The position numbers and the translations under genes are program-made. A stretch of 64,000 nucleotides of DNA from Anaeramoeba ignava BMAN (Eukaryota; Protista; Anaeramoebae). Every line of letters begins with the position of its first letter. Position 1 is the first letter of the stretch. This document shows, piece by piece, positions 23,059-49,470 of the stretch. Under the pieces are notes generated by a model. That model saw only the letters and a program-made list of their open reading frames with translations, did not search any database and was not told the DNA's origin. Location of the stretch: contig JAPDFW010000135.1 in the NCBI GenBank assembly GCA_028826165.1, forward strand, positions 62,707-126,706. Direction: 5' to 3'.

Positions 23059-24585
23059 TTATTTGTAAAATCGAGAAGATCTTTTTTTGGGTTTTTCTTC
23101 TTTTTCTTCTGGATAATCTTTATAAGCTTGTTCGAACCATTCCTGTTCAGTAAGAGTAGAAAGATTAATAGGACCAATCATTTGTCTACCAGGATCAACA
23201 ACCATCCAAGAAATTTCACCAATTTGGGAAGGATCAGTGAAAAACATTCCTTCATCCACTTTGTCCTTTTTTCGAGACCAATAGTAATTCTTGAATCTTC
23301 TGTGGATTCTTTGTTTGAGTTCATGAGATCCAATTCCAAGAGCAAAAGGAACGAAAAACTTTCATAATCGGAATCACCAAGTGGATCATTATTGACATAT
23401 CTAAAATACTCATCATTATCATAATAACTATATCTTTGATGAGAAAGAGAATCCATAACATGTTCATAACGATCGTCTGGAGAATAGAACTTCTCCAAAA
23501 GTAATAATCTCGCCAATCCATGAACTTCTCCAAAAAGTCTATCATAAATTTTGGGATTTATTTTTTTGCGATCCAAACCAGGAACAAGAACCATGAACCC
23601 TCTGCGGCTGTATTTAAACAAACGGTTCTCATATGAAGGAGATCTTCTAGTGGCATCAAAAAGGTTATATTGCTTTGTGATTGCGCGATAAAATCTGGCA
23701 CCAATCATGACAGTTTCTCCGTTATACAAAGCACAACACGAATCTATATCGAATCCCATAAGGACTTCTGCAGGGGATTTGTAGAGACGGAAGATGATCT
23801 GAATATGACGGAACGGATCCGCCGAGCAAAGGGTGACAACGCATTTTTTCTTAACGAAATGGATGTTCGAAGAATTTGGATGATTTTCCGTTATTTCTTC
23901 CAATAACGAAATGACTTTTTGGGTCGCTTGTTCCTCATTTAATCCATAAATAAACATGTCAACATCGGATTGCTCATATGGGGAATCTTTTCCGTAAAAT
24001 TTTCGAATGTCTTTTAATTTTCCAGTGTTGAATTCTGCCGGAAGGGGAACTAAACTCCCGGCAACGGCTCCTCCGGCAACAATAACGTTGTTCCAATTTA
24101 TATGTTTTAGTTGACCTGCAGTGAAAATCTCAAAGCGTTTAAGAAACTCCTCTTTTGGTACAACCGCAATTCCTTGAAGAGGTTTATAAATAAACTCAAA
24201 TACAGCCGGAATTTGTTTTCTCATTTTTGTCTTGTTCTTCGTACTTGATTTCTTCCCGAATTTCAAAGGGATCCACTAACGAAAGATACATATTATCAAG
24301 CACAGAGTTGTTTCGATCTCGCGCAAAAAACTCTCGATATCTGTTTTCTCTTTTATTGATGTTTTGAAGAAATAATTTTTTTGACAGCACGTTTGAAAAC
24401 TCTTTTTGCTTGGCAAACTTAAAAAATACGTCCATATTCATATGGGGCGCTATCTCTAATAGGAAATCTTCTGGCATTTCTTTGAATGACTCAATATAGC
24501 TGTCTATGTCTGTTGTTTCATTAAGAACATTTCCTACTTTTTCTGCTGATAATTCGAGTAAACTTGGAATTGGGATTTTTGTCAT
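23059..24585 (-). CDS. Pol-beta-superfamily nucleotidyltransferase-like protein (intronless; two 1-nt frameshifts)
   Basis: VIVAGGAV...SDVDMFIYGL...HIQIIFRLY...GFDIDSCC...RRSPSYENRLFKYSRRGF; C-terminus DPGRQMIG...EWFEQAY. The three overlapping ORFs join at A/T runs near 24215 and 23357. Confidence 0.7.
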
Positions 24586-24649
24586 TTTTTTTTTAATTTG
24601 GAAAAGAGAAAAATAAAAATGAAAAATGAAAAATAAAAAATGGATTTCT

Positions 24650-25150
24650 TTTATAATTTTTGATTTTGATTTTAATTTTTGATTTTAATTTTAATTTTAA
24701 TTTTAATTTTAATTTTAATTTTAATTTTGATTTTAATTTTGATTTTGATTTTTATTTTGATTTTAATTTGAATTTAATTTTAATTTTAATTTTAATTTTA
24801 ATTTTAATTTTTGATTTTAATTTTAATTTTAATATTAATTTTTGATTTTGATTTTAATTTTTGATTTTAATTTTAATTTTAATTTTGATTTTAATTTTAA
24901 TTTTAATTTTTAATTTTAATTTTGATTTTAATTTTAATTTTGATTTTAATTTTAATTTTGATTTTAATTTTGATTTTGATTTTTATTTTGATTTTAATTT
25001 TGATTTTGATTTTGATTTTAATTTTAATTTTAATTTTAATTTTAATTTTAATTTTGATTTTGATTTTGATTTTAATTTTGATTTTAATTTTAATTTTAAT
25101 TTTAATTTTAATTTTAATTTTAATTTTTAATTTTAATTTTGATTTTAATT
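24650..25150. repeat. (AAAATT/AAAATC)n tail downstream of RCC1-BTB copy A
   Basis: Tandem hexamers continuous with the gene's terminal NNQN codons. Confidence 0.9.
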
Positions 25151-26925
25151 TTAATTTTGATTATTAAATTTGTTAATTAATAAATCAAATAAATTTGGAT
25201 TTGTTTGATTTAATTGAAAATAATCAATTCCAGTTTTAATTTCATCAATGATTTCTTGTGTAATTTGAATTTCATCTTTAATTTGATTTGAATAAATCCA
25301 ATATTCAAATATTTGAAATGATTTATTACTTAATTCACTATAATCTGTAACTTTATTAGATTTATCTTCAGTTACAGATAAAAACATTCCTCGATATAAT
25401 TCACTTCTCATTATTAATATTAATTTAGGAAATTTATATTGTTTTTCTTTTCTTTCAATTATAAAATCTTTTTCATTTTCATTTTCATTTAAATAAATTC
25501 TTTTCATTGTTTCTTCAATTTTTTCATTTGAATTTATAATTTCTTTAATTTCAGAATATAATTTTGGATTTATTATTCTGTTTGAATAAATCATTTCAAA
25601 TATTTGATTTGATTCTTTAATTGATTTTTTTGAAATAATTTCTTGAAGTTTTTCAATTTTGATTTTGATTTTGATCTTTTAATCTATATTTCAATATTAA
25701 TTTATGAGCTTTGATTATTTCTCCATTTTCGGTTTTAAATGAAATATCACAAAATTCTTTTCTTTCAAATAATTTTATCAAATCTTCTTCAAGATTGGAA
25801 AAAGGAGGAGGAGAATAATAAATAAATGAATTGTTAAATCCACAAGAAATATGATAATTAGGAATATTTTCATTAAATCTTAATTTAGGAAGTTCAATTT
25901 GAATTGGAATTGATTGCTTTAAATGACTATATCCAGTTCCTAATTGACCTGAATAATTATATCCAAATCCTATTAATTTCCCTTTGGAAGTTAAAATCAA
26001 AGTATGAGCATTTCCAACAGAAAAATCAAGAATATTATCATCATTTTCAAATAAAGATGATTTGATTTCAGTAAATTCATAAGTATTTTCATCTTTGCTA
26101 AGTCCATTAAATCCATAATTTCCACATGAATAAAGTTTTCTTTTTGGATTTTGATCTTGATTTTCATTTTCAATAAATGTTATTGAATGACCACCTCCAC
26201 ATTGAATATCAATTATTTTGCCTTTTGGAATATTTTGGATTTTGGTTAATTTTGTGATTTTTGTTTCTTGTTTTCTTGATTCTCCTAATCCAACTTGACC
26301 AAATCTATTATCGCCGCATCCAAATAATTCTTGATTTGAATTTAAAAGAAAAACACAATTTGAAGAGTTTCCTGAAAATATTTTAGAAACATTTTTCATC
26401 ATTAAAATTGGTTTTTGTGTATTTTTAAGTGTTTCAGAATCAAAACCAAGTTGACCAAATTGATTTGAACCAATTCCATAAACATTTTGATTTGAAGTTA
26501 ATAAGTAAATTGAATTTCTTCCAGAAACAACATCTTCGAATTATTCTATCATTTTTATCTTCAATTAATGATGAAATATTGATAAATTCATTTGGATTAT
26601 TTGGATTAATATCTAAACCTTTGGCAAATACATTTCCTTCTATTGTTAAAATAGCTTCATTGTGAACACCAACAGTTACTTTTTGAATATTTTCTTCAAT
26701 TTGAATTTTTGAAGGATTTTGTTTTGAATATTTTTCATTTAAATATTCTATTGCTTTTCCATTTTGAAAAAGGAAAATTGTTGAAAAATAACATGATGAA
26801 ATTTGTTTAATTTGTTTTTCATTTTCATTTTCAAATTTAAATTGAATTGGTTTTGTTATTTTTTCTGATTCATTTTTTATAAGTTTTGGTTCGTCATTTT
26901 TACCACAAAATAAACAATCATTCAT
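25151..26925 (-). CDS. RCC1-repeat propeller + tandem BTB protein, copy A (frameshifts ~26537 and ~25655)
   Basis: GxNxxGQLG and FSVGxxHTLIL repeats; BTB motifs EFCDISF..AHKLIL and FPKLILIMRSELYRGMF. Collinear with the intact copy 44931-46721. Confidence 0.85.
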
Positions 26926-27059
26926 TTTTGAAAAGAAAAAAATGAAAAAAATAATTTTTGGAATTTTAATTTTAATTTTAATTTTAATTTTAATTTTGAT
27001 TTTAATTTTAATTTTAATTTTAATTTTAATTTTGATTTTAATTTTGATTTTGATTTTAA

Positions 27060-27410
27060 TTTTAATTTTGATTTTGATTATTAAATTTGTTAATTAATAA
27101 ATCAAATAAATATTTGAAATGATTGTTTGATTTTAATTTATCATTGAAAATAATCATTCCCCAATTTGAATTTCATCAATTATTTCTTGTGTAATTTCAA
27201 TTTCATCTTTAATTTGATTTGAATAAATCCAATATTCAAATATTTGAAATGATTTATTACTTAATTCACTATAATCTGTAACTTTATTAGATTTATCTTC
27301 TGTTACAGATAAAAACATTCCTCGATATAATTCAATTCTCATTATTAATATTAAATTTAAGGAAATTTTATATATTGTTTTTCTTTTCTTTCAATTATAA
27401 AATCTTTTAA
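27060..27410 (-). pseudogene. Degenerate 3' fragment (second BTB) of an RCC1-BTB gene
   Basis: ELYRGMFLSVTEDKSNKVTDYSE with multiple indels; upstream part replaced by AT-only sequence. Confidence 0.8.
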
Positions 27411-28199: not shown

Positions 28200-29768
28200 T
28201 TAAATGAAATAAGATTCAAGTTCATCAACAACCCATTTATCATAAGAACCAGCTAAATAACTTCTAGCTTCATTTGATTGATAAGTAATTCCATTAGGTA
28301 GATTATAACATATACCAAAATTTGAATAACCAGGTTGTAAATTAGAACCTAAAATAAAATCATTAAAATGTGGACCATAACTTAAACCAGAATAAATTGC
28401 ACTATTTTGTTTATATGTAAACTTTGCAGGTATTCTATCCCCTTTATCATTTCTTAATGAAAAAATAAATGCATTTGAATCATTAATCCGTTCTCCATTT
28501 GCTGATTTAAATCCAACTTGAGTAAAACCTCCAAAAATAAAATTATCTTTTGTTTTGATAATAACTAATGTTTTTCCTTTCCCATCAACTGCTTTATGCC
28601 AATTTTGAGAATTAAATCCATCTCTTTTTGCTGAAAATCCTTTTTTCATTTTAGAAAAAAAATCATTATCATTTATCCATTCTTGTAATTTCTTAACATA
28701 TTCTTCTTCTGTAATAATTCTTGTTTCTGAAAATTGAGGAAAATTCTTTTTGATTGGTTCCAATTTCTTTTGTAATTCAAATTCTTTTTCATATTCATCA
28801 AAAACAGGTTTCATTTTCTCAACTTCTTTCTTCCATTTATCTTCAATTTCAATTTTCATTTGTTGATTTTCTTTCTCTTTATTTTCAATTTCTTTTTGAT
28901 TTTCTTGAATAACTTTGTTTTGAATATCAACTAAAAAAGATTTAGGAAAAAAATCAAATTGTTTTAATTTATCAAAATCTTGTTTTGAAATTGAATCTTT
29001 ATCAAATAATGAAAAAAAAGAATGAAATAATCTTTTCTTTTCAATTCCCTTTTCTTTTTCTTTCTCTTTTTCTTTCTTTCCTTTTAATCTCTTATTTCTT
29101 TTTTCAATCCAATTATTTAAAAATTGAAAAAAATCAAATTGAAAAATTTCTTTTTTTTCTTGTTTAAATTGAATAAATTTGATAATTTCTTCTTTAGTTA
29201 AATTGAATAAATTTTCATTATTTTGAATTTGGGAAAAATTTTGATTTATTAATTCAAAACATTTTATTTCAATTTCATTTGAATTTAAATTTCGATTTTG
29301 GAATAAAAATTGGAAAAAATTTGAATAATTAATTGAATTTAAAATTTTTTTTTGAATAATTTCTTTCAATAAATTTAATTTAAAATAAATTGAAATTTCT
29401 AATAATTGGATAAGATTTTCTTGATTTTCAAAAGAAATATTTCCATAATAAATATAACTCAAAATTGATTCCATTTCTTTTTTATTAAATTGTTTTAAAA
29501 AAATCTTATCAATATCGTTTTCTCCTCTTAAAAACTCATTAAAAAAAGGAGATCTTGAAGATAAAATTGATTTATGAACTTTAATTTCAAAATTATTTGA
29601 TTTATTCTCAACAAAAATTGAAAAATCATTAAATGAATTTCCATTTAAAAGGTTTGAATAATCTTTAATTAAATTTTTTGTTACTTTTTTTTCTAAATTT
29701 TTCATTTCATTTTCATTTTCATTTTCATTTGCATTTTCAATTTGGTTATTATTATTATTATTATCCAT
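28200..29768 (-). CDS. BTB + coiled-coil + TLDc protein
   Basis: FNDFSIFV..IKVHKSILSSRSPFF (BTB); FSAKRDGF..WHKAVDGKGKTLVIIKT..FIFGGFT..DSNAFIFSL (TLDc). Confidence 0.9.
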   Translation of the reverse strand: MDNNNNNNQIENANENENENEMKNLEKKVTKNLIKDYSNLLNGNSFNDFSIFVENKSNNFEIKVHKSILSSRSPFFNEFLRGENDIDKIFLKQFNKKEMESILSYIYYGNISFENQENLIQLLEISIYFKLNLLKEIIQKKILNSINYSNFFQFLFQNRNLNSNEIEIKCFELINQNFSQIQNNENLFNLTKEEIIKFIQFKQEKKEIFQFDFFQFLNNWIEKRNKRLKGKKEKEKEKEKGIEKKRLFHSFFSLFDKDSISKQDFDKLKQFDFFPKSFLVDIQNKVIQENQKEIENKEKENQQMKIEIEDKWKKEVEKMKPVFDEYEKEFELQKKLEPIKKNFPQFSETRIITEEEYVKKLQEWINDNDFFSKMKKGFSAKRDGFNSQNWHKAVDGKGKTLVIIKTKDNFIFGGFTQVGFKSANGERINDSNAFIFSLRNDKGDRIPAKFTYKQNSAIYSGLSYGPHFNDFILGSNLQPGYSNFGICYNLPNGITYQSNEARSYLAGSYDKWVVDELESYFI

Positions 29769-30294: not shown

Positions 30295-32086
30295 TTAATT
30301 TTGATTATTAAATTTGTTAATTAATAAATCAAATAAATTTGGATTTGTTTGATTTAATTGAAAATAATCAATTCCAGTTTCTAATTCTTCAATAATTTCT
30401 TGTGTAATTTGAATTCCATTTTTGATTTGATTTGAATAAATCCAATATTCAAATATTTGAAATGATTTATTACTTAATTCACTATAATCTGTAACTTTAT
30501 TTGAAGTATCTTCTGTTACAGATAAAAACATTCCTCGATATAATTCACTTCTCATTATTAATATTAATTTAGGAAATTTATATTGTTTTTCTTTTCTTTC
30601 AATTATAAAATCTTTTTCATTTTCATTTTCATTTAAATAAATTCTTTTCATTGTTTCTTCTATTTTTTCATTGGAATTTATAATTTCTTTAATTTCTAAA
30701 TATAATTTTGGATTTATTAATTGTTTGAATAAATCATTTCAAATATTTGATTTGATTCTTTAATTGATTTTTTTGAAATAATTTCTTGAAGTTTTTCATT
30801 TTGATTTTGATTTTGATTTTGATTTTGATTTAATCTATATTTTAATATTAATTTATGAGCTTTGATTATTTCTCCATTTTTGGTTTTAAATGAAATATCA
30901 CAAAATTCTTTTCTTTGGAATAGTTTTATCAAATCTTCTTCAAGATTGGAAAAAGAAGGAGGAGAATAATAAATAAATGAATTGAAAGTTCCACAAGAAA
31001 GATGATAATTGGAAATATCTTCATTAAATCTTAATTTAGGGAGTTCAATTTGAATTGGAATTGATTGACTATTTGTATTTCCAGTTCCTAATTGACCTGA
31101 ATAATTATATCCAAATCCAATTAATTTTGAATTGGAAGTTAAAATCAAAGTATGAGAATTCCCAACAGAAAAATCAAGAATATTATCATCATTTTCAAAT
31201 AAAGATGATTTGATTTCAGTAAATTCATTTGTATTTTCATTACGATTTTTGCCAAGTCCATTAAATAGATAATCTCCACATGAATAAAGTTTTCTTTTTG
31301 GATTTTCATTTTCATTTTCATTTTCAATCAACATTATTGAATAATAAAATGAAGGTTTAATATCAATTATTTTGCCTTTTGGAATATTTTGGATTTTGGT
31401 TAATTTTCTTATATATGTTTCTTTTCTTCTTGATTCTCCTAATCCAAGTTGACCATAGAAATTTTCACCGCATCCAAATAATTCTTGATTTGAATTTAAA
31501 AGAAAAACGCAATCTGAAGAATCTCCTGAAAATATTTTAGAAACATTTTTCATCATTAAAATTGGTTTTTCTGTTTTTGGAAGTGTTTTATATTCAAAAC
31601 CAAGTTGACCATATTCATTTGAACCAATTCCATAAGCATTTTGATTTGAAGTTAATAAGTAAATTGAATTATTTCCAGAAACAACATCTTCAATTATTCT
31701 ATCATTTGTATCTTCAATTAATGATGAAATATTGATAAATTCTTTTGGATTATTTGGATTAATATCTTTTCCTTTTGCAAATACATTTCCTTCTATTGTT
31801 AAAATAGCTTCGTTTGCATAACCAACAGATACTTTTTGAATATTTTCTTCAATTTGGATTTCTTCAGGATTTGAATCATTTCCTCTTAAATATTCCATTG
31901 CTTTTCTATTTTTAAAAAGGAAAATTGTTGAAAAACCTCCTGATGAAATTTGTTTAATTTGTTTTTCATTTTCATTTTGATTTTCATTTTCAAATTTAAA
32001 TTGAATTGGTTTTGTTATTTTTTCTGGTTCATTTTTGATAAAAGAATTGGATAATTATTTAAACCAAAAAATAAAATTTCATTCAT
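30295..32086 (-). CDS. RCC1-repeat + tandem BTB protein, copy B (frameshifts ~32040 and ~30718)
   Basis: ATG at 32086 (MNEILFFG); collinear with copy D. Confidence 0.85.
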
Positions 32087-32171
32087 TTTTGAAAAGAAAA
32101 AAAATGAAAAAAATGAAATCCATTTTTCTTTTTTCTTTTCAAAAAAAATTTCCTTTTCAAAAAAAAATTGA

Positions 32172-34898: not shown

Positions 34899-34901
34899 TT
34901 T

Positions 34902-35018
34902 TTATTTTAATTTATTTTGATTTTCAAATTTAAATTGAATTGGTTTTGTTATTGAATTTGGTTCATTTTTGATAAATTTTGGTTCTTGATTTGAACCAAA
35001 AAATATAATTTCATTCAT
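34902..35018 (-). pseudogene. Truncated 5' end (38 codons) of another RCC1-BTB gene
   Basis: Translates as MNEIIFFGSNQEPKFIKNEPNSITKPIQFKFENQNKLK*, the family N-terminus, broken at the EN/QN repeat. Confidence 0.85.
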
Positions 35019-35071
35019 TTTTGAAATGAAAAAAATGAATAAGAAACAAATCATTTAATTTTTTTTGCTTT

Positions 35072-36214: not shown

Positions 36215-36427
36215 TTTTGGAAAGATGAAAAAAATGAAAGAAAAAAATGAATTTTAATTTTAATTTTAATTTTAATTTTGATTTTAATTTTAATTTTAAT
36301 TTTAATTTTAATTTTAATTTTAATTTTAATTTTAATTTTAATTTTGATTTTAATTTTAATTTTAATTTTGATTTTAATTTTAATTTTGATTTTAATTTTA
36401 ATTTTAATTTTGATTTTAATTTTGATA

Positions 36428-38219: not shown

Positions 38220-38292
38220 TTTTAAAAAATAAAAAAATGAAAAAATTAAAAGTCGAAAAAAAAATTTGAATTTCTTTTCTTGTTAATTTTTT

Positions 38293-41200
38293 TTAAAAAT
38301 ATTTTTGTGTTTCCAATTCTTTTAATCGATTATTAAATTGATTAAATTGACTTAATTGATAAAAATCTTCTGTGTCATTTAATTCTTGAATAATTTTTGT
38401 TAAATCTTTTTTTAAATTTAAATTTAAATTTAAATCAAATTCTCCAAAATAAAAGTAATGAATAAGTTGTTCAAGACTTCCTTTACTTTTCCCACTATAA
38501 TCTTTAACAGAATTTGAATCATCTTGAACATTCAAAAACATTTGTCTAAATAAATTTGATCTTAAAATTAAAATCAATTTATGAACTTTGATTTCTGAAG
38601 AATCATCACAAATAATTTTGAAATCTTTTTCAATCTTTTTCCAAATAAAGATTAACAAAATCTTTTTAATTCCTGATTCATCTTTTTGTTTCCGGATCCA
38701 ATTTTTATCAAATCCTAATTCTTGTGAAATGATTTGAATTTTCTTTTCATTTTGAATTTGGGAAAAATTATCTGAACTTGTTAAATATTCTTGAAATAAT
38801 TTTTGAGAATCAGAATCATCAAAATTAAATTGATTTGATTTCCAATAAAATGAAAAGAATGGATGTTTTGACTCAATTAAATTCCATTCATCTTTTTGAA
38901 ATTGATTCAAATCAAGATTAGAAATTGGATCAATCATTCCAGTATAAATGAAAATCAAGAAAGGAATAACTTGATTTTCAGGTTTTGATGAGAAAACTTC
39001 TTGAATTTTTGTTAAAATTGAATGATCATTATCAAATCTCATCAATAAAATTAGTTTATGAACTTTGATATTTCCATCTAAATGATTTATTGTGAAATCA
39101 CAAAATTCTTGTCTCAAAAATAGATTAAATAAATCAATTTGCAAATTTTTGGAAAGAATTGGGAATTCAAATCTGAAAAATTCACTTTCAATAAATGGAC
39201 AAGGTTTATTTTCTCTAATATATCCAATTGCAAAATCTTGCATAATATCTTTTTCCTTAATTTGATTTGGGCTCAGTTCAGAAATTCCTGAATGTGATAA
39301 TGATATATTATAAAGCAAATTAGAAGAGATAATACTGATAAATTTTGAATTCTTTGTGGATAAAATAACGAATCTATCAGTTTCCAAAGGAGTAATAACT
39401 GAAGGAAGACTCCAGACAAATTGAATTTTATCTCCAACAATTTTTCTATTCAAAATTTTGATTCCCACAAAACTAGTTGGTTCAATTATGATTGGTGATT
39501 GACAAAGAATAATTTTAGAATAAGAATAAGAATAATATCCAATAATAAATTCTTCCTCGATCATTCCACCTCCAATTTGTATTTTGATTTCTACTTCTCC
39601 TTTTTTTTCACATTTCTCATTTTTGTAATAAACTTGAAAATATTTTGGTGCTTCTTTTTCTTTAGATTGAAGTTGTGATTTAAATAAAATTATTTGATCA
39701 TTTTGATGAGGTTCATAATTATTTGATAATTCCCATGATACTTTTATTGTTTCTCCAATCTTTGTTTTTTCTGGAGATGATTTAATTATTCCTCCTTCTA
39801 ATGGAAGAACTTCAATTTCTTCACTTTTTGCAAAAGGTTTATATTTGTATTCACTTGTATAATATCTAAATTCAAATATTTGATTTTCTTCTGTAATATA
39901 ATTTCTAATATCAAATGTTAATTTTCCCTTTTTTTTATGCATTGGAATATATTGATAAGTTAAACCAGGAGTAGTTGTAGAATCTTTCAAAAATAAAGCA
40001 ATACGACCGAAATAATTTGCTTGATAATATTCAGGTATCTCCCATTCAACATCAATTAATTCTCCAAATTTAATTTCATTTTTGGAAACTGATAATTTGA
40101 AATCTTTTCTATTAATCTCTTTCACTTTAATTTCTTCACTTTTCATTAATGATATTCTTCCATAAAATTTAATATATCTAAATTCAAATATTTGATTCTC
40201 ATCTTTAATATATTCATTAATATCAAATGTAAATTTTCCTTTTCTTGCTAAATTTGAATTATCTTTAATAATTAAAGAGTTATCAATTCGAGGAAATTTC
40301 AAAAATAAAACAATCCGATCTCCATGAATTGGCTGATAATATTCAGGTAATTCCCATTCAACATCAATTGATTCTCCAAATTTAATTTCATTTTTGGAAA
40401 CTAATAATTTGAAATCTTTTTTATCAAATTCTTTCACTTTAATTTCTTCACTTTTTGTTATTGGGTTTTTTTGATCTTTTGGATAATATCTAAATTCAAA
40501 TATTTGATTTTCTTCTGTAATATAATTTCCAATATCAAGTGTAAATATTCCTTTTTTTGCTAAATTTGAAGTAAATTTCCTAAATAAATAATTATTGATT
40601 GGAGAATCTTTCAAAAATAAACCAATCCAATCTTGTTTATTTGAATGATAATATTCAGGAAATTCCCATTCAACATCAATTGATTCTCCAAATTTAATTT
40701 CATTTTTGGAAACTAATAATTTGAAATTTTTTTTATCAAATTCTTTCACTTTAATTTCTTCACTTTTTGCTATTGGGTTTTTTTGATCTTTTGGATAATA
40801 TCTAAATTCAAATATTTGATTTTCTTCTGTAATATAATTTCCAATATCAAATCTTAATATTCCTTTTTTTGTTAAATTTGAAGTATTTTTGTCAACTAAA
40901 GAATTATTGAATGGAGAATCTTTCAAAAATAAACCAATCCAATCTTGTTCATTTGATTGATAATATTCAGGAAATTCCCATTTAACATCAATTGATTCTC
41001 CATATTTAATTTCATTTTTGGAAACTAATAATTTAAAGATTTTAAATTCATCAACTCCAAAATGAGAAGAAGTAAACAATACTTTTTTTTCGTTTGAAGT
41101 TTTGAGATGAGAAATGTATTTAACAATAAATAATTGGGCTTCATTTTCATTTGTATTTTCCTTTTTCAAATCATCATCCAATTTGAATTCAATCATTCCA

Positions 41201-42363
41201 ATTCTTGAAACTCTATCATTATGTTTTTCTATCAAAGGTTTTTGTGATAAATCATTTAAATTTGAATGAGAATCATAATAAAAAAGTGAAATTGAATCTG
41301 AAATGTTTGGTTTGTATTCATCAGGTAATTTGAATTGAATTTGAATTGGTAAACCAAATGTAGGTCTTTTTGCTATAATTTCAATTCCATTATTTTCCAA
41401 GAATTGGATTTGGAATGGTTTGCTGACACATTGGCTTTTATCATCACATGAAAAAAATCTAAATTGTAAATTGTCAAGAAAATTAATTGTTTGATAATCT
41501 TTTGTTTGGAAAATAATTGAATCTTTTCTATTTGTTTGATGAATATATCTTATTTCAATATATTGTGAACTTATTGAGTTTTCATAAAATAATCCAATCC
41601 GACTTGTTTCAGATATCTCAAAATCTTCAGGAAACTCCCATGAAACTTCAATGGATTCTCCAAATAAAAACTTTTCTTTAGAGAGAATAAGATGATTTTC
41701 TGGAATTTTGGATTTAATAATAAAAGGTTCACTTTCTGCTATTGTGTCTTCATTAACTGCAATGTATCTAATTACAAATTCTTCATTAGTTTCATTTCTC
41801 ATGCAAGATCCAGTATTAAAAGTTGCTGTTCCATTCATTGTTGCATTGTGATTAGCCACATAATCTAAATAAGAATTATAAAATGGTTCATCTTTGGGAA
41901 ATAAGCAAATCAAATCCCAACGTCTTAAAGAATAACCATCACAACCATCATCTCCATTGGGTATAAAATTAACAGGTAATTTCCAAGTTGTTTTAATTTC
42001 TTTTTCATTAATTTCATCAATAGTAATTATTTTTTCAAAAGGAATAATTTCAAAAACTTCAGAAACAAGAATTGATTTGGATTTATTTTCAGGTAAATAT
42101 CTAATTTGTAATTTGTTCTTCCATATTTCCACATAATTGACATTAAGAAATGTTGTTCCTTCTAATTGAGAATTTGAATTGTTTTTATAAGTAAAGTAAA
42201 TTTCATTTTTTTCTTTTGTAGCGTCAAAAAGTGCAATTTTATCATTTGATTTTGGTTGAAATTGTTCAGGAAGTTTCCATTCAACAATAATTTCATTTTG
42301 ATTTGTTAATTTAACTTTTTTGTTTTCATAATTTTTAACTTGAATAAAATATTTTTGTTCCAT
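38293..42363 (-). CDS. Array of about 10 SKICH/Ig-like domains + tandem BTB (1356 aa)
   Basis: Repeated V.W.......D(W/R)I.LF......F.FRY units; C-terminal LFLRQEFCDF..VHKLIL and VHKLILILRSNLFRQMF. Confidence 0.78.
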   Translation of the reverse strand: MEQKYFIQVKNYENKKVKLTNQNEIIVEWKLPEQFQPKSNDKIALFDATKEKNEIYFTYKNNSNSQLEGTTFLNVNYVEIWKNKLQIRYLPENKSKSILVSEVFEIIPFEKIITIDEINEKEIKTTWKLPVNFIPNGDDGCDGYSLRRWDLICLFPKDEPFYNSYLDYVANHNATMNGTATFNTGSCMRNETNEEFVIRYIAVNEDTIAESEPFIIKSKIPENHLILSKEKFLFGESIEVSWEFPEDFEISETSRIGLFYENSISSQYIEIRYIHQTNRKDSIIFQTKDYQTINFLDNLQFRFFSCDDKSQCVSKPFQIQFLENNGIEIIAKRPTFGLPIQIQFKLPDEYKPNISDSISLFYYDSHSNLNDLSQKPLIEKHNDRVSRIGMIEFKLDDDLKKENTNENEAQLFIVKYISHLKTSNEKKVLFTSSHFGVDEFKIFKLLVSKNEIKYGESIDVKWEFPEYYQSNEQDWIGLFLKDSPFNNSLVDKNTSNLTKKGILRFDIGNYITEENQIFEFRYYPKDQKNPIAKSEEIKVKEFDKKNFKLLVSKNEIKFGESIDVEWEFPEYYHSNKQDWIGLFLKDSPINNYLFRKFTSNLAKKGIFTLDIGNYITEENQIFEFRYYPKDQKNPITKSEEIKVKEFDKKDFKLLVSKNEIKFGESIDVEWELPEYYQPIHGDRIVLFLKFPRIDNSLIIKDNSNLARKGKFTFDINEYIKDENQIFEFRYIKFYGRISLMKSEEIKVKEINRKDFKLSVSKNEIKFGELIDVEWEIPEYYQANYFGRIALFLKDSTTTPGLTYQYIPMHKKKGKLTFDIRNYITEENQIFEFRYYTSEYKYKPFAKSEEIEVLPLEGGIIKSSPEKTKIGETIKVSWELSNNYEPHQNDQIILFKSQLQSKEKEAPKYFQVYYKNEKCEKKGEVEIKIQIGGGMIEEEFIIGYYSYSYSKIILCQSPIIIEPTSFVGIKILNRKIVGDKIQFVWSLPSVITPLETDRFVILSTKNSKFISIISSNLLYNISLSHSGISELSPNQIKEKDIMQDFAIGYIRENKPCPFIESEFFRFEFPILSKNLQIDLFNLFLRQEFCDFTINHLDGNIKVHKLILLMRFDNDHSILTKIQEVFSSKPENQVIPFLIFIYTGMIDPISNLDLNQFQKDEWNLIESKHPFFSFYWKSNQFNFDDSDSQKLFQEYLTSSDNFSQIQNEKKIQIISQELGFDKNWIRKQKDESGIKKILLIFIWKKIEKDFKIICDDSSEIKVHKLILILRSNLFRQMFLNVQDDSNSVKDYSGKSKGSLEQLIHYFYFGEFDLNLNLNLKKDLTKIIQELNDTEDFYQLSQFNQFNNRLKELETQKYF
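39800..41037 (-). repeat. Four in-frame ~312-bp tandem repeats (104 aa Ig-like domains)
   Basis: FKL.VSKNEIK.GE.IDV.W starts at ~41037, ~40725, ~40413 and ~40101. Confidence 0.92.
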
Positions 42364-42404
42364 TTTGAAATGAAAAAAATGAAAATTAATTTTTGCTTTT
42401 CAAA

Positions 42405-42731
42405 AATGAAAAAGATTTTATAATTGAAAGAAAAGAAAAACAATATAAATTTCCTAAATTGATATTAATAATGAGAAGTGAATTATATCGAGGAATGTTT
42501 TTATCTGTAACAGAAGATAAATCTAATAAAGTTACAGATTATAGTGAATTAAGTAATAAATCATTTCAAATATTTGAATATTGGATTTATTCAAATCAAA
42601 TTAAAGATGAAATCCAAATTACACAAGAAATAATTAATGAAATTCAAATTGGAATTGATTATTTTCAATTAAATCAAACAAATCCAAATTTATTTGATTT
42701 ATTAATTAAAAAATTTAAAAATCAAAATTAA
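42405..42731 (+). pseudogene. Inverted 3' fragment (second BTB) of an RCC1-BTB gene
   Basis: NEKDFIIERKEKQYKFPKLILIMRSELY...KNQN*; no ATG start; opposite orientation to the other copies. Confidence 0.85.
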
Positions 42732-42773
42732 TTTTTTCATTTTTTTCAAAACAAAAAACAAAAACAAACCCAA

Positions 42774-43514
42774 ATGGATAATAATAATAATAACCAAACT
42801 GAAATTGTCGAGATTTACAAAAAGGAAAACCAAGATTTAAAAAAGGAAATCGAAGATTTAAAAAGGGAAATTGAGAAAATGAAACCAGTTTTTGATAAGT
42901 ATCGAGAACAATATCAAAAAGATTTGGAATATCAAAAACAAATAAAAGAATTGAGAAAACCATTTTCAAATTCGGAAATTATTCAAGATATTGAATATAT
43001 CCAGACATTAAAAGAATGGATAAATGATAATGATTTCTTTTCCAAAATGAATTTGGGATTTTCAGCAAAAAAAGATGGATTTTCTGCTCAAAATTGGCAT
43101 AAAGCAGTTGATAATAAAGGAAAAACATTAGTTATTATTAAAACAAAAGATAATTTTATTTTTGGAGGATTTACTCAAGTTGGATGGCAAGGAAAGAAAG
43201 GATACATTAGTGATTCAAATGCATTTATTTTTTCATTAAGAAATGATAAAGGGGATAGAAATCCTCAAAAATTTACAATTAAATATGGAAAAGAACAATA
43301 TGCAATTGTGGATGATTCGGAAAATGGACCTATTTTTGGATATTCTTGGAGGGATTGGAATTTAAAATCTAATTTACAACCTGGTTATTCAAATTTTGGA
43401 GAAAGTTACAATCTCCCTAAAGGAATTAAATATGGAACAGATCTCGCACAAACTTATTTATCTGGTTCTTATACTTCATCTGTCGTTGTTGAACTTGAGA
43501 CTTATTTCATTTAA
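42774..43514 (+). CDS. Coiled-coil + TLDc protein (BTB-less relative of 28200-29768)
   Basis: Shares MDNNNNNQ.E, EKMKPVFD and EWINDNDFFSKM with that gene; TLDc motifs. Confidence 0.88.
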   Translation: MDNNNNNQTEIVEIYKKENQDLKKEIEDLKREIEKMKPVFDKYREQYQKDLEYQKQIKELRKPFSNSEIIQDIEYIQTLKEWINDNDFFSKMNLGFSAKKDGFSAQNWHKAVDNKGKTLVIIKTKDNFIFGGFTQVGWQGKKGYISDSNAFIFSLRNDKGDRNPQKFTIKYGKEQYAIVDDSENGPIFGYSWRDWNLKSNLQPGYSNFGESYNLPKGIKYGTDLAQTYLSGSYTSSVVVELETYFI

Positions 43515-43625
43515 AAACTTTTCTTTCTTTTTTTTTTCAAAATTCCATTTTATTTTTCATTTACTTTCAATCAAATGAAATGAAAAAAATGAATAAGAAA
43601 CAAATCATTTAATTTTTTTTAATTT

Positions 43626-44768
43626 TCAAAAATATGTTCGATGAATAATTGTTGGTCCAATTTCATTATATTCATACAATGAAATACATCGGTCTTGAAA
43701 AGTAGAAAATGAAGCCAACATTGATCCACCAATCCAAGATGAATATTTTCTTTCTTCAGGTGCAATAATTTTAACTTTCATTCCATTTTTTTCTGATAAT
43801 TTAGATATTTCTTTTTTAAATCTTTGTTTGATTCCAGGAAACATTGAAGTTCCTCCAGATAAAATAATATTAGAAAATAAATCTTTTTTGATATCCTCAT
43901 CACATTTCATAATTGAATCATAAATCATTTCATGAATTCCTTTTTCCTCTATTTCAATCAAAGAAGGTTGAAATAACGCTTCTGAACATCTGAATCTTTC
44001 TTTTCCAATTTTGATAATTCGACCATCAAATATTTCATAATTTTTTTCAATTAATTTTTCTTCTTGATTAATTTCTTTATCAAAATCCAAAGCAACATAT
44101 CCAAATTTTTCTTTAATATCTTTAATAATTGCAATTTCAGCAGTTGTAGTCAAAGAATATCCTTTTTCTGTTAACATTTGTAATAAATAATCATTTAAAT
44201 GTTTTCCTCCCAAATTTAATTTATTGATTGAATTTAATAAAACAGAGCTTTCATAAACAGGAACAACTTGAATAAAACCACCTCCCATTTCAACAACAAC
44301 TCCTATTGATCTTCTTGTTGATATTAATGATAAAACAGATTGATTTTCAAGATCGAAAAAAGGAGTACAAAATGTTTCAAACATAATTTGAGTAATTTTC
44401 TCTTTATGTATTTTTGAATTGAAAACACTATCCATTAATAAAGCAGGATGTTCTTCAGGAGCAACTCTTAATTCATTATAAAAACAATGATGCCATATTT
44501 TTTCCATATCATCCCAATTTATTACTGTTCCATTTTCAATCGGATATTTCATTCTTAATATTCCCCTTTTTGCAATTGCTTCATCTCCAATATATGCATC
44601 TTTTTGTCCCATTCCTACCATTACTCCCATATATGCTGGTCTTCCAACTATTGATGGAATAATTGATCTTGGTTTTTCATCTCCTGCAAATCCTGATTTT
44701 GAATAAGTTGTTCCATTATCAAATATTACAATTAGATTTTCTTCCAATGTATAATCACCAAAACTCAT
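43626..44768 (-). CDS. Divergent actin / actin-like protein, copy 2
   Basis: 380 aa, nearly identical to copies 1 and 3. Confidence 0.93.
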
Positions 44769-44930
44769 TTTTTGGAAAGATGAAAAAAAATGAAAGAAAA
44801 AAATGAATTTTAAATTTTAATTTTAATTTTAATTTTAAATTTAATTTTAATTTTAATTTTAATTTTATTTTTAATTTTAATTTTAATTTTAATTTTAATT
44901 TTGATTTTAATTTTATTTTTAATTTTGATT

Positions 44931-46721
44931 TTAATTTTGATTATAATTTTGATTATTAAATTTTTTAATTAATAAATCAAATAAATTTGGATTTGTTTGA
45001 TTTAATTGAAAATAATCAATTCCAATTTTAATTTCATCAATAATTTCTTCTGTAATTTGGATTTCTTTTTTAATTTGATTTGAATAAATCCAATATTCAA
45101 ATATTTGAAATGATTTATTACTTAATTCACTATAATCTTTAACTTTATTAGAAGTATCTTCTGTTACAGATAAAAACATTCCTCGATATAATTCACTTCT
45201 CATTATTAATATTAATTTAGGAAATTTATATTGTTTTTCTTTTCTTTCAATTATAAAATCTTTTTCATTTTCATTTAAATAAATTCTTTTCATTGTTTCT
45301 TCAATTTTTTCATTTGAATTTATAATTTCTTTAATTTCAGAATATAATTTTTGATTTATTATTCTATTTGAATAAATCATTTCAAATATTTGATTTGATT
45401 CTTTAATTGATTTTTTTGAAATAATTTCTTGAAGTTTTTCAATTTGATTTTGATTTTGATTTTGATTTAATCTATATTTCAATATTAATTTATGAGCTTC
45501 AATTATTTCTCCATTTTTGGTTTTAAATGAAATATTACAAAATTCTTTTCTTCTAAATAATTTTATCAAATCTTCTTCAAGATTGGAAAAAGAAAGAGGA
45601 GAATAATAAAGAAATGAATTTAAATATCCACAAGAAAGATGATAATTGAAAATATTTTCATTAAATCTTAATTTAGGAAGTTCAATTTGAATTGGAATTA
45701 ATTGATTTATTGTATCTCCAGTTCCTAATTGGCCAAATTCATTATTTCCAAATCCAATTAATTTTGGATTGGAAGTTAAAATCAAACTATGCACATGTCC
45801 AACAGAAAAATCAAGAATATAATCATCATTTTCAAATAAAAATGATTTGATTTCAGTAAATTCATAAGTAAATTGATTTTTGCCAAGTCCATTAAATTGA
45901 TAATTTCCACATGAATAAAGTTTTCTTTTTGAATTTTCATTTTGATTTTCATTTTCAATCAACATTATTGAATGAGTATATCCACATTGAATATCAATTA
46001 TTTTGCCTTTTGGAATATTTTGGATTTTGGTTAATTTATCAATTTTTTCTTCTTCTTTTTTTGATTCTCCTAATCCAAGTTGACCAGAATTATTCCAACC
46101 GCATCCAAATAATTCTTGATTTGAATTTAAAAGAAAAACATGATTTGAAGAATTTCCTGAAAATATTTTAGAAACATTTTTCATCATTAAAATTGGTTTT
46201 TCTGTTTTTGGAAGTGTTTCAGAATCAAAACCAAGTTGATCATATTCATTTGAACCAATTCCATAAACTATATGATTTGAAGTTAATAAGTAAATTGAAT
46301 TAGCTCCAGAAACAATATCTTGAATTATTCTATCATTTGTATCTTCAATTAATGATGAAATATTGATAAATTCTTTTGTATTATTTGGATTAATATTTAT
46401 TCCTTTTGCAAATATATTTCCTTCTATTGTTAAAATAGCTTCATTTCCATAACCAACAGTTACTTTTTGAATATTTTCTTCAATTTGGATTTTTTGAGGA
46501 TTTTGTTTTGAATCTTCTTCATCTAAATATTCTATTGCTTTTCCATTTTTAAAAAGGAAAATTATTTCAAAATATCCTGTTGAAATTTGTTTAATTTGTT
46601 TTTCATTTTCATTTTCATTTTCATTTTCAAATTTAAATTGAATTGATTTTGTTATTTTATTTGGTTTATTTTTAAAAAATTTTGGATATTTATTTTTACC
46701 AAAAAATAAAATTTCATTCAT
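44931..46721 (-). CDS. RCC1-repeat + tandem BTB protein, copy D (intact, 596 aa)
   Basis: Uninterrupted ORF with RCC1 repeats and two BTB domains. Confidence 0.92.
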   Translation of the reverse strand: MNEILFFGKNKYPKFFKNKPNKITKSIQFKFENENENENEKQIKQISTGYFEIIFLFKNGKAIEYLDEEDSKQNPQKIQIEENIQKVTVGYGNEAILTIEGNIFAKGININPNNTKEFINISSLIEDTNDRIIQDIVSGANSIYLLTSNHIVYGIGSNEYDQLGFDSETLPKTEKPILMMKNVSKIFSGNSSNHVFLLNSNQELFGCGWNNSGQLGLGESKKEEEKIDKLTKIQNIPKGKIIDIQCGYTHSIMLIENENQNENSKRKLYSCGNYQFNGLGKNQFTYEFTEIKSFLFENDDYILDFSVGHVHSLILTSNPKLIGFGNNEFGQLGTGDTINQLIPIQIELPKLRFNENIFNYHLSCGYLNSFLYYSPLSFSNLEEDLIKLFRRKEFCNISFKTKNGEIIEAHKLILKYRLNQNQNQNQIEKLQEIISKKSIKESNQIFEMIYSNRIINQKLYSEIKEIINSNEKIEETMKRIYLNENEKDFIIERKEKQYKFPKLILIMRSELYRGMFLSVTEDTSNKVKDYSELSNKSFQIFEYWIYSNQIKKEIQITEEIIDEIKIGIDYFQLNQTNPNLFDLLIKKFNNQNYNQN

Positions 46722-46773
46722 TTTTGAAATGAAAAAAAATGAAAATTAATTTTTGCTTTTTTAATTTTAATTT

Positions 46774-47916
46774 TCAAAAATATGTTCGATGAATAATTGT
46801 TGGTCCAATTTCATTATATTCATACAATGAAATACATCGGTCTTGAAAAGTAGAAAATGAAGCCAACATTGATCCACCAATCCAAGATGAATATTTTCTT
46901 TCTTCAGGTGCAATAATTTTAACTTTCATTCCATTTTTTTCTGATAATTTAGATATTTCTTTTTTAAATCTTTGTTTGATTCCAGGAAACATTGAAGTTC
47001 CTCCAGATAAAATAATATTAGAAAATAAATCTTTTTTGATATCCTCATCACATTTCATAATTGAATCATAAATCATTTCATGAATTCCTTTTTCCTCTAT
47101 TTCAATCAAAGAAGGTTGAAATAACGCTTCTGAACATCTGAATCTTTCTTTTCCAATTTTGATAATTCGACCATCAAATATTTCATAATTTTTTTCAATT
47201 AATTTTTCTTCTTGATTAATTTCTTTATCAAAATCCAAAGCAACATATCCAAATTTTTCTTTAATATCTTTAATAATTGCAATTTCAGCAGTTGTAGTCA
47301 AAGAATATCCTTTTTCTGTTAACATTTGTAATAAATAATCATTTAAATTTTTTCCTCCCAAATTTAATTTATTGATTGAATTTGATAAAACAGAGCTTTC
47401 ATAAACAGGAACAACTTGAATAAAACCACCTCCCATTTCAACAACAATTCCTATTGGTATTCTTGTTGATATTAATGATAAAACAGATTGATTTTCAAGA
47501 TAGAAAAAAGGAGTACAAAATGTTTCAAACATGATTTGAGTAATTTTCTCTTTATGTATTTTTGAATTGAAAACACTATCCATTAATAAAGCAGGATGTT
47601 CTTCAGGAGCAACTCTTAATTCATTATAAAAACAATGATGCCATATTTTTTCCATATCATCCCAATTTATTACTGTTCCATTTTCAATTGGATATTTCAT
47701 TCTTAATATTCCCCTTTTTGCAATTGCTTCATCTCCAATATATGCATCTTTTTGTCCCATTCCTACCATTACTCCCATATATGCTGGTCTTCCAACTATT
47801 GATGGAATAATTGATCTTGGTTTTTCATCTCCTGCAAATCCTGATTTTGAATAAGTTGTTCCATTATCAAATATTACAATTAGATTTTCTTCCAATGTAT
47901 AATCACCAAAAATCAT
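46774..47916 (-). CDS. Divergent actin / actin-like protein, copy 3
   Basis: 380 aa, nearly identical to copy 2. Confidence 0.93.
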
Positions 47917-48024
47917 TTGTTTTTAAATTAAATTAAACAAAAATTTGTTTTGCTTTTCTTAATTTTGAAGAAATAAAAAAAATGAAAAAAAAAATTTGGA
48001 AAGAAATAAAAAAAGTTTTGTTGA

Positions 48025-49470
48025 TTAAATGAAAAAAGTTTCAAGTTCATAAACCTGCCATTTATCAAAAGAACCAGCTAAATAGTTTTTGGATTCATTT
48101 GTTCCGAATTTCATTCCAAAAGGAAGATTGTAGCTTCTTCCAAAAGATAATCTTCCAGGTTGTAAATCGGAATTTAAATCAATATCTCCATAACCTTCAC
48201 CTCCAAAAACGGGGCCATAATTTAAATTGTAATAAATGGCATGTTTTTCCTCGTTTCTTTTGATGGAAAACTTTTCTGGTTTGCGAGAGTTTTGGTAATC
48301 TCTTAAGGAAAAAATAAATGCATTTGAATCTTTAATATATCTATCGCTTCCTTTCTTAAATCCAACTTTTGTAAATCCTCCAAAGATAAAATTAGCTGTT
48401 GTTTGAATAATAACTAATGTTTTTCCTTTATTATCACACATATCATGCCATTTTTTACAATAGAATCCATCTCTTCTTGCTGAAAATCCCAAATTCATTT
48501 TGGAAAAGAATTCATTATCATTTATCCATTCTTTTAATCTGTTGAAATATTCTTTTGTTTGAATGATTGATGATTGCAATCCAATTCTTGATTTGAAAAT
48601 GAATGAATTTTGGTTTTGAATCAGCTCTCTTAATTTCATTTCATTTCCTTGATGGTTTCTGAGTGTTTCAAATTGGAGTAATGTTTGTGAAATTTGATTT
48701 GGAATTAAATTTTCGATCAAAGTTCCTTCAAGTTCTTTTGGTGAAAAATCAATAAATCTGATTTTATCAATCACATTTGAAATTTGATTCTGAATTTGTT
48801 CCTTTTCTTGCTTATCAAGTCTCTGGTTATCTTTTTGTTGGTTAATATTGAGTTTATGCTTTCCCCATTTTATTAGTGCTTGGAAAATTTCAAACTCATT
48901 TGTTATAATTTGATCATTTACTAAAATTGAATTTAAATGATTTTCTTCAAGTTGAAGGAAAAAAGGGGTTTTGATTAATATATCAAAATTTTCCAAAATA
49001 AATTGATAAGATGAGTCCATTAATTGATTAAAATTCATTGATTCAGATAGCTTTAGAATATCAACAATAGACTCAATTCGGAAATTGCTTTTAATAAAAT
49101 CTGAAGAAATTTCAATTAATTCATCAATTAAATATTTCGAAGAAAAAAACAAAATTTCAATTGCATTTTGTAATTCAAGTTCAATTTTTCCTGAATAAAA
49201 ATAATTCAAAATTGAAAATAGAGTTTGACTTGAAATATCTTTTAAGATCATTTGTTTTTCTTGTGAATCTTTCATTTCAGAATTAAAAAGTGATTTAAAA
49301 TATTGACTTCTTGTTGAAAGAATTGATTTATGAGTTTTAAATGAAATTGGATTTGTTTCTTGATTGAATTGGCAAATAATTTCAAAATCATAATAGTTTT
49401 CGTCTTTTTGATTTTGGAATAAATTTTGTAAATCATTTGAAAGTTTTTCTAAATTTGAATAATTTTGCAT
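48025..49470 (-). CDS. BTB-BACK-TLDc protein
   Basis: FKTHKSILSTRSQYFKSLF (BTB); FLQL..NEFEIFQALIKW..IRF (BACK); TLDc motifs. Confidence 0.9.
   Translation of the reverse strand: MQNYSNLEKLSNDLQNLFQNQKDENYYDFEIICQFNQETNPISFKTHKSILSTRSQYFKSLFNSEMKDSQEKQMILKDISSQTLFSILNYFYSGKIELELQNAIEILFFSSKYLIDELIEISSDFIKSNFRIESIVDILKLSESMNFNQLMDSSYQFILENFDILIKTPFFLQLEENHLNSILVNDQIITNEFEIFQALIKWGKHKLNINQQKDNQRLDKQEKEQIQNQISNVIDKIRFIDFSPKELEGTLIENLIPNQISQTLLQFETLRNHQGNEMKLRELIQNQNSFIFKSRIGLQSSIIQTKEYFNRLKEWINDNEFFSKMNLGFSARRDGFYCKKWHDMCDNKGKTLVIIQTTANFIFGGFTKVGFKKGSDRYIKDSNAFIFSLRDYQNSRKPEKFSIKRNEEKHAIYYNLNYGPVFGGEGYGDIDLNSDLQPGRLSFGRSYNLPFGMKFGTNESKNYLAGSFDKWQVYELETFFI

Follow-up and report, generated by a model that had tools for sequence, protein, structure and literature searches.

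In nematodes and grasses, clustered, lineage-specifically expanded F-box and MATH-BTB adaptors, which combine a constrained cullin-side domain with positive selection on the substrate-binding domain, have been proposed to destroy foreign proteins (PMC4334554, PMC8665587). Here, we analysed 64,000 nucleotides of DNA from the anaerobic amoeba Anaeramoeba ignava (the window; eukaryotic, 80% A+T), in which positions 23059-49470 form an island of genes that carry a substrate-side RCC1, TLDc, SKICH or Ras domain and BTB domains on one chain. Like the nematode and grass adaptors, the island families are clustered and expanded in one lineage, with constraint on the BTB side and positive selection on the binding domain. 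They differ in their recognition domains (RCC1 propellers, TLDc and SKICH-type Ig repeats), the tandem-BTB tail, the single-celled metamonad host and the almost complete loss of linkage among paralogues. We favour, with modest confidence, the reading that duplications assembled the island as one patch of families that would act as Cullin-3 substrate receptors, tagging changing and probably foreign proteins with ubiquitin.

The RCC1-BTB family also resembles hypervariable plant NLRs (hvNLRs) in its periodic entropy spikes, their predicted location on one surface and the exposed aromatic residues. It has 55 positions at the level of 1.5 bits, of which the published hvNLR definition asks for 10 (PMC8226289). 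Unlike hvNLR diversity, this diversity is found among the paralogues of one genome and not among alleles. NB-ARC/NACHT, LRR or signalling domains were not detected by Pfam in 24 island open reading frames (ORFs), and the island does not contain the combination of NB-ARC/NACHT and a repeat sensor that defines NLR immune receptors. The initial annotation had compared the island with birth-and-death clusters of NLR or F-box genes; the F-box-like expansion and the variable propellers on a constant BTB support the second comparison, while the lack of any NLR domain leaves the first without its defining part.

Among individual architectures, IBTK and RCBTB likewise combine an RCC1 propeller with BTB, and many of the paralogues are named 'btk-binding protein-related' by the sources. 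The island RCC1-BTB genes lack the ankyrin repeats or BACK domain of IBTK and RCBTB, which are conserved, low-copy proteins with host substrates. RhoBTB and Dictyostelium RacA resemble the island Ras-BTB-BTB gene in the order of a small GTPase and two BTB domains; the island GTPase differs from RhoBTB in its broken DxxG motif and in an effector loop whose signature suggests the Ras type. IBTK-alpha has been described as a Cul3 substrate receptor (PMC4447969), and a capacity to form Cul3 ligases has been described for RhoBTB-type tandem BTB domains (PMC4931677). BTB genes have also undergone massive expansion, with some of them in tandem arrays, in another symbiotic microbial eukaryote, Rhizophagus irregularis (BTB/Kelch/Sel1/kinase genes), whose high-copy genes are reported to adjoin Mutator-like elements (PMC8647823); in contrast, no transposon was seen in the island scans, and the domain partners differ.

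The evidence for a diversified repertoire comes mainly from 113 full-length RCC1-BTB paralogues (matches of 575-630 amino acids, selected from 116 single-unit candidates, and the window copy). The propellers are on average 79% identical, compared with 92-94% for the two BTB domains. Entropy is at least 1.5 bits in 55/385 propeller columns and at least 2.5 bits in 26/385, compared with 3/205 and 0/205 BTB columns. Of the propeller columns, 39 exceed 2 bits, and most of them recur once per blade. One set comprises residues after the Gly of a G-x-x-H hairpin (50; 91-92; 140-141; 191, 193; 248-249; 309-310; 366-367), and a second set the x positions of G-x-N-x-x-GQLG (159-160; 209-212; 273-275; 326-329). 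In a structure model with an RCC1-like fold (E-value 6e-24), the first set lies in the hairpin loop of each of the seven blades. Judged from beta-meander geometry, both loop sets would lie on the same face, and the prediction is a seven-blade propeller with the majority of its variable positions on one face. Aligned with UVR8, positions 248-249 and 309-310 fall on the W-R of GWRH, whose arginines have been assigned to the UVR8 dimer surface (PMC5108777). Tyr, Trp, Asp and Arg are enriched at the 39 sites (Tyr 18.7%, compared with 2.8% elsewhere), and the strings of residues at these sites are distinct in 113/113 paralogues, with a mean identity of 21%.

Comparison of the four window copies gives a nonsynonymous difference of 0.39-0.52 at the 39 codons, 0.06-0.08 in the remaining propeller and 0.02-0.03 in BTB, with an overall synonymous difference of 0.06-0.09. 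Four-fold sites were used to avoid the problem of a low G+C content at third codon positions (GC3). They differ by 0.04-0.11, the first and second positions of the 39 codons by 0.39-0.50 and BTB by 0.02-0.04. Variable codons exceed four-fold sites in 6/6 pairs (Fisher p 2e-6 to 1e-13), including three pairs of copies unused for the choice of sites, and change on the predicted binding face amounts to 4-11 times the silent rate. Counting methods on these four DNA copies, rather than a codon site model, indicate positive selection on the binding domain and constraint on the BTB side. Within the variable codons, about 24 synonymous sites show a change of 0.02-0.16; a mutation hot spot at these codons is not indicated but is only weakly excluded. 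Mutagenesis of the diversity-generating-retroelement type is unsupported: the ORF scan detected no reverse transcriptase, and all four bases occur at the third position of the variable codons.

Variants also appear to be shuffled among the RCC1-BTB paralogues. At near-biallelic sites, linkage (r2) is 0.106 at a distance of 1-5 residues and 0.009-0.012 farther away, and all four combinations occur at 1852/1890 site pairs; for the segment-distance correlation, the odd/even control was only 0.18. Because silent divergence is only about 0.08, recurrent mutation is an unlikely source of this number of shared variants. The shuffling is most simply read as gene conversion, although mis-polishing could contribute.

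The BTB-TLDc paralogues repeat the RCC1-BTB design of a variable binder on a constant adaptor. Over 56 proteins, entropy reaches at least 2.5 bits in 13/177 TLDc columns, compared with 0/256 columns of BTB and the following helical part, and linkage decays with distance (r2 from 0.51 to 0.03; 0/2000 permutations). Among the three SKICH-BTB paralogues, 84 columns vary, and these are densest in the later Ig repeats (residues 600-900) and near 160-175 and 1007-1020.

Alternatively, the variable faces could track expanded partners of the host itself, such as small GTPases, trafficking proteins or the V-ATPase, and the proteins would then be symbiosome or phagosome regulators. RCC1 folds bind small GTPases, Ran-RCC1 is among the top fold matches, and a Ras-BTB-BTB fusion lies within the island. 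In addition, TLDc domains are reported to bind V-ATPase (PMC8608904), and A. ignava is credited with 119 Ras-family entries and expanded Rab/TBC sets (PMC11550330). However, copies with near-identical silent sites share only 21% of their variable residues, which is faster than plausible for a changing host partner, and the TLDc surface is hypervariable too, unlike what would be expected of a binder of one conserved pump. We therefore regard tracking of host partners as unlikely.

The link between the variable heads and ubiquitin would be the BTB-BTB tail. A model of the tail from a deeper alignment of 92 sequences has a confidence (predicted local distance difference test, pLDDT) of 95, and its best structural matches are fused BTB dimers. 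PDB gave 112 matches at E<=0.001, of which those shown are all BTB, with a SPOP-Cul3 entry at E 1e-4. A single-chain BTB pseudo-dimer is thus predicted. The same tail carries different heads among the 92 relatives (ankyrin 43, RCC1 21, Ras 7, WD40 up to 7), and a PDB sequence search with the tail alignment was dominated by ankyrin matches. SKICH-BTB shares the RCC1-BTB tail (E 4e-48), and the window Ras-BTB scored nothing against the tail profile. For Cullin-3 BTB receptors, a phi-x-D/E motif in the alpha3-beta4 loop has been defined (10.1101/461806). This motif reads M-K-D in the BTB-TLDc gene at 48025-49470, the only one with BACK helices in Pfam, and M-M-E in Ras-BTB, and is ambiguous in the gene at 28200-29768. 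In the second BTB domain (BTB2) of RCC1-BTB, the match is approximate, with a V-T-E-D sequence whose V and D are each about 80% conserved in the 92 relatives. From what is known of BTB families, the tail would be expected to bind Cullin-3.

Several points weigh against a repertoire of selected, Cullin-3-linked receptors. In RCC1-BTB, the first BTB domain lacks the phi-x-D/E loop, BTB2 has V-T-E-D only and then a single additional helix, and Pfam detects no BACK domain. The top fold matches of the tail are transcription-factor BTBs of the BCL6/Miz1 type and not cullin adaptors, the full-length model has a pLDDT under 50 across the tail, and the eight A. ignava cullins are listed in the published table with no class stated. 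Further, the 113 proteins are the closest matches to one query, the selection test is based on just four DNA copies with a GC3 of 5%, and BTB constraint relative to four-fold sites is significant in only 4/6 pairs. The rank test of r2 against distance in RCC1-BTB is not significant (1426/2000) because linkage is already lost beyond 5 residues, and recurrent mutation or mis-polishing among paralogues could be a partial source of the shared variants.

In the receptor model that we favour, dispersed families multiply by tandem and block duplication, each gene combines a near-constant BTB module with a hypervariable head (RCC1 propeller or TLDc), and gene conversion would shuffle the variable sites among paralogues. 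The variable face may bind changing proteins from bacteria (prey, symbionts) or viruses, and the BTB tail may recruit Cullin-3, leading to ubiquitin tagging and destruction of the bound protein. In a bolder version, which we put forward only tentatively, this free-living protist with symbionts would keep a germline library comparable to antibodies, with as many as about 1000 RCC1-propeller binders and several hundred TLDc binders, which would be shuffled by conversion, be wired to Cullin-3 through an interchangeable tandem-BTB tail and serve intracellular immunity or symbiont control, with the altered actins and the Ras fusion as baits.

The scale of the families is genome-wide. The intact RCC1-BTB protein has 756 homologues, and 120/120 of those listed are from A. 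ignava (73-96% identity, 58 contigs). BTB-TLDc has 253 matches, and all named ones among the 120 listed are from A. ignava. Published counts are inflated by split gene models (cross-checked for two RCC1-type and eight TLDc-type tags only); in Supplementary Data 4 of PMC11550330, A. ignava has 597, 364, 213 and 32 entries in four RCC1-type PANTHER families, 407 in PTHR24410, 111 in PTHR14241, 102 SPOP-like entries and 146 actins. The same table gives at least 135 stand-alone BTB tails, 8 cullins and 119 Ras-family entries. PTHR45982 has 597 entries in A. ignava, 156-189 in A. flamelloides, 5 in T. vaginalis and 83 in N. gruberi (PMC11550330), which is a large lineage-specific expansion of the F-box/MATH-BTB kind. 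Supplementary Data 4B of the same source also lists 20 consecutive Ras-family locus tags (11359-11378) in A. ignava, and 44-45 cullin entries in A. flamelloides compared with 8 in A. ignava.

Within 23059-49470, gene calling by ORF listing, Pfam scan, self-BLAST and tblastn gave 17 units, with 88% of the island coding. These units and one duplicated block are as follows.

23059-24585, minus strand: Gad2-domain (nucleotidyltransferase-like) gene of about 509 codons, outside the expanded families (Atlas PF26128, high-scoring; GC3 0.34)
25151-26925, minus strand: RCC1-propeller-BTB-BTB copy D, with two frameshifts (Pfam and tblastn)
27071-27390, minus strand: 3' RCC1-BTB fragment, degraded, second BTB alone (tblastn)
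28200-29768, minus strand: intact BTB-helical-coil-TLDc gene, 522 amino acids (Pfam), with a TLDc part that is hypervariable over the 56 paralogues
30295-32086, minus strand: RCC1-propeller-BTB-BTB copy C, with two frameshifts (Pfam and tblastn)
32172-32945, plus strand: cyclin-fold gene, 257 amino acids, a bystander and sole member of its 90% cluster (GC3 0.28)
33030-34898, plus strand: Ras-type GTPase-BTB-BTB gene, 622 amino acids, with DTTS at the DxxG motif (ORF and Pfam)
34911-35018, minus strand: 5' RCC1-BTB fragment, 36 codons (tblastn)
35022-38243, no strand assigned: duplicated block of actin and RCC1-BTB, about 3.2 kb, 93% identical to 43576-46745; the pair also occurs on another contig (KAJ5066414/5)
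35072-36214, minus strand: divergent actin 1, 380 amino acids (Pfam and alignment to conventional actins)
36428-38219, minus strand: RCC1-propeller-BTB-BTB copy B, with three frameshifts, at two of which read contigs are mostly in frame
38293-42363, minus strand: gene of Ig-like (SKICH/HECW_N) repeats and BTB-BTB, 1356 amino acids, whose tail family is that of RCC1-BTB, with two close paralogues elsewhere
42403-42731, plus strand: inverted 3' RCC1-BTB fragment, 95-97% identical to full copies
42774-43514, plus strand: coil-TLDc gene without BTB, 246 amino acids, part of the inverted block (Pfam)
43626-44768, minus strand: divergent actin 2 (Pfam and alignment to conventional actins)
44931-46721, minus strand: RCC1-propeller-BTB-BTB copy A, intact, 596 amino acids, the reference of the family analysis
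46774-47916, minus strand: divergent actin 3 (Pfam and alignment to conventional actins)
48025-49470, minus strand: intact BTB-BACK-TLDc gene, 481 amino acids, with a canonical phi-x-D loop (M-K-D)

The island thus holds four RCC1-propeller-BTB-BTB copies, two BTB-TLDc genes, one coil-TLDc gene, one Ras-BTB-BTB and one SKICH-Ig-BTB-BTB gene; the remaining units are three divergent actins, three RCC1-BTB fragments, one cyclin and one Gad2-like gene. The initial annotation had delimited an island of BTB, TLDc and actin genes. Gene content and coordinates agree with ours, except that the span includes the unrelated cyclin and Gad2-like gene. The latter has two compensating 1-base indels, with both ends in one frame and a middle ORF (23178-24224) in another; Atlas PF26128 clusters (Gad2-type domain) are mostly eukaryotic, and the name Gad2 presumably refers to a phage anti-defence nucleotidyltransferase-like protein. 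As a side observation, GC3 is 5% in RCC1-BTB, 9-18% in the other expanded genes and 28-34% in the cyclin, Gad2-like and F-box-LRR genes, and it is also low in the flanking GINS (9%) and CCT (15%) genes.

Tandem copies, fragments and an inversion had all been noted before and are confirmed here: 35022-38243 and 43576-46745 match at 93% and actins 2 and 3 at 98% by self-BLAST, there are three RCC1-BTB fragments, and the block at 42403-43514 (BTB fragment and TLDc gene) is inverted. An A-rich leader motif is similar at each end of this block (42365-43595), which separates an actin from SKICH-BTB; those two adjoin directly on another contig. Pairs of actin with RCC1-BTB and of actin with SKICH-BTB recur on other contigs, for which block duplication suffices without a functional link.

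Clustering was assessed with locus-tag numbers from the published A. ignava table and match names, taking tag order as gene order. Among tags 9870-10704, 104/835 genes belong to the families and form 15 patches of at least three genes, 11 of them with at least two classes; the largest has 8 genes, and the window patch (15 family units) exceeds every patch in this sample and is of the same kind. A family neighbour lies within 2 tags of 82/104 genes, a number inflated by split models, compared with a random mean of 43 and a maximum of 67 in 5000 draws, so that local clustering and tandem copies are present as in F-box/MATH-BTB families. Under independent placement at 12.5-20% density, at least 13 family genes among 17 would have a binomial probability of 3e-9 to 9e-7; tandem and block duplication explain why placement is not independent.

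These tests bear on the possibility that the island is an integrated, co-regulated cluster, with actin and Ras as decoys for adjoining sensor-adaptors. Co-location tests were confined to tags 9870-12979, and the table lists about 33 ids per family. A genome-wide check of co-localisation, as the initial annotation had proposed, gave an excess for close subfamilies: of 34 TLDc-type tags, 4 had one of the 44 RCC1-BTB tags at a distance of 2 or less (compared with a null mean of 0.49; 4/2105 shifts). The excess is found only at a distance of 1-5 genes and is gone at 10 or more, and the broad families co-locate in only 3/24 circular-shift tests at 5%, all with actin, and in 0/6 tests of TLDc-type against RCC1-type. 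At least seven divergent actins were seen (three in the island and four elsewhere, in a homologue search dominated by conventional actins). Three of the four outside the window lie within two accession numbers of a BTB-family gene, one of them two accessions from a BTB-TLDc gene, and the fourth lies at least 26 from the three candidates checked. Actin partners vary by site (RCC1-BTB, SKICH-BTB or BTB-TLDc), and block duplication alone yields such pairs. With families spread over the genome, 15 patches in 835 genes and weak cross-family co-location, the notion of a special, integrated island has weak support at most, and we consider such a cluster improbable. The island is one ordinary duplication patch among many.

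The proteins that would serve as decoys have changed. The three island actins are 96-98% alike and 59-61% identical to conventional actins, and both of their nucleotide-binding phosphate loops, intact in conventional actin, are altered (DNGSGMCK to DNGTTYSK, D(T/S)GDG to EMGGG), with the D-loop kept. The His161 equivalent is Gln and the His73 equivalent is Asn, with the Gln137 equivalent kept. Between the most distant copies, nonsynonymous change is 18/899 and synonymous change 10/241, a ratio of about half, and the actins look like a maintained actin-related subfamily that is not hypervariable. The Ras domain of 33030-34898, presumably of the Ras type by its effector-loop signature, is without DxxG. 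A 190-amino-acid transcriptome-derived protein, P0124, is identical to this domain over about 144 residues, with a different start and end and no BTB, and may represent a paralogue, the product of conversion or a chimera of transcript assembly. Actin or Ras could have a decoy role. In the reading that we favour, both belong to further expanded families that duplicated blocks brought along, and the cyclin and Gad2-like genes are bystanders.

The initial annotation had described every island gene as intronless and most flanking genes as intron-containing. Unspliced ORF translations are identical to collection proteins in 9/9 cases looked up, with the third actin in the same cluster, and the public gene models are therefore single-exon. 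The broken RCC1-BTB copies differ from an intact paralogue by indels of 1-12 bases only, and no intron is needed. GT..AG introns are readable in the flanking HMG-box and TSR2 genes, and several flanking genes fall into ORF pieces, but the flanking GINS gene is intronless too. Similarly, the eight full-length BTB genes of that annotation exist, with a Pfam BTB domain in 8/8, if broken ones are counted; 5/8 are intact, 3/4 RCC1-BTB copies carry two or three frameshifts each, and in the SKICH-BTB ORF, compensating indels enclose a few out-of-frame residues (1235-1245).

Most of the frameshifts look like assembly errors. Short-read contigs of four runs (X1, X2, X4 and X5) were compared over 36430-42800, a range outside which the frameshifts of copies C and D and of the Gad2-like gene lie, and they mix paralogues, so that single copies are not separable. 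The extra base at 37992 is absent from 98% (X1), 100% (X2), 100% (X5) and 55% (X4) of contig depth and that at 37616 from 79-92%, whereas an in-frame base at 36849 occurs in just 0-23%. For the three-copy SKICH-BTB gene, compensating indels at 38636 and 38662 are present in X1 and X4 contigs and fit the frame of both paralogues. Summed contig depth is about 1000 times higher for RCC1-BTB than for SKICH-BTB, which is not a measure of copy number, and no GT..AG joints were listed on 36430-42800 in these contigs, from runs not known to be RNA. BTB divergence is still low in the broken copies. Nanopore assembly with short-read polishing can leave 1-base indels. The published A. ignava assembly was produced from Nanopore reads with short-read polishing (PMC11550330). 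Signs of gene death are the three RCC1-BTB fragments, which are genuine debris, while the frameshifted copies may be assembly errors.

The residual 1-base indels, common in the island, might also suggest that the locus as a whole is an assembly artefact, and giant viruses, which carry BTB, RCC1 and actin-like genes, might have supplied an inserted segment. Copies differ by 10-14%, and read contigs of the four runs cover 30/30 bins of 36430-42800. Collapsed repeats, against which the initial annotation had cautioned, are rejected as the source of the island, as its four RCC1-BTB copies are 86-90% identical. On viral contigs, 0/613 pattern matches encode a relative, and the families are found on 58 host contigs; metagenome contigs gave one distant RCC1-like protein (L001:5663-7614, 27% identity). 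An artefact or viral insertion is therefore hardly credible.

Selfish or neutral amplification by repeat-mediated duplication and conversion, or an internal conflict such as toxin-antidote or drive, would be compatible with the fragments, the inversion, the hexamer microsatellites at gene ends, the gaps of 12-809 bases and the at least 135 stand-alone tail entries in the genome. Neutral spread, however, gives no 4- to 11-fold amino-acid excess at chosen loops with a constrained tail. In addition, no terminal inverted repeat was found among the 25 longest inverted pairs of the window, and no transposase or reverse transcriptase in 48 scanned ORFs (the scan left out ORFs under 50-60 amino acids and part of the right flank). 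Terminal repeats, transposase and viral relatives, which mark a transposon or an endogenous giant virus, are thus missing from these searches, and we judge amplification of this kind very unlikely as an explanation.

The flanks contain housekeeping genes (CCT, TPR, DHHC, ABC, GINS, RasGAP, RWD/F-box-LRR, v-SNARE, TSR2, HMG-box and DUF445), as had been proposed. At 13699-16615 on the plus strand, an RWD ORF immediately precedes an ORF with F-box and LRR; the two are possibly one RWD-F-box-LRR gene, another ubiquitin-ligase adaptor. Further, an 876-codon ORF at 54621-57251 (minus strand) consists largely of Asn/Gln/Ser/Leu hexamer repeats, and 59200-62600 is about 3.4 kb of short-repeat DNA at 3-7% GC. 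Tracts resembling these two fill introns and gene ends throughout the window.

A supplementary table of PMC11550330 gives counts for the expansions, which go undiscussed in its main text; there, in the text as available, RCC1 and POZ are mentioned 0 times, likewise in supplement 9. In the literature searched, the largest supplement of PMC11550330 lying outside its scope, we found no account of these Anaeramoeba families as variable receptors, nor of their surface, selection or shuffling. The families are likely a diversifying adaptor repertoire with new recognition domains in a protist, and they outweigh in importance the island, which is merely one patch of many. Diversified repertoires linked to ubiquitin ligases have been described in nematodes and plants, and a metamonad case, if true, would push them deep into the eukaryote tree and indicate that variable binders can be made from RCC1 propellers and TLDc domains. 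It may also provide a testable handle on how Anaeramoeba separates its sulfate-reducing symbionts from prey and invaders.

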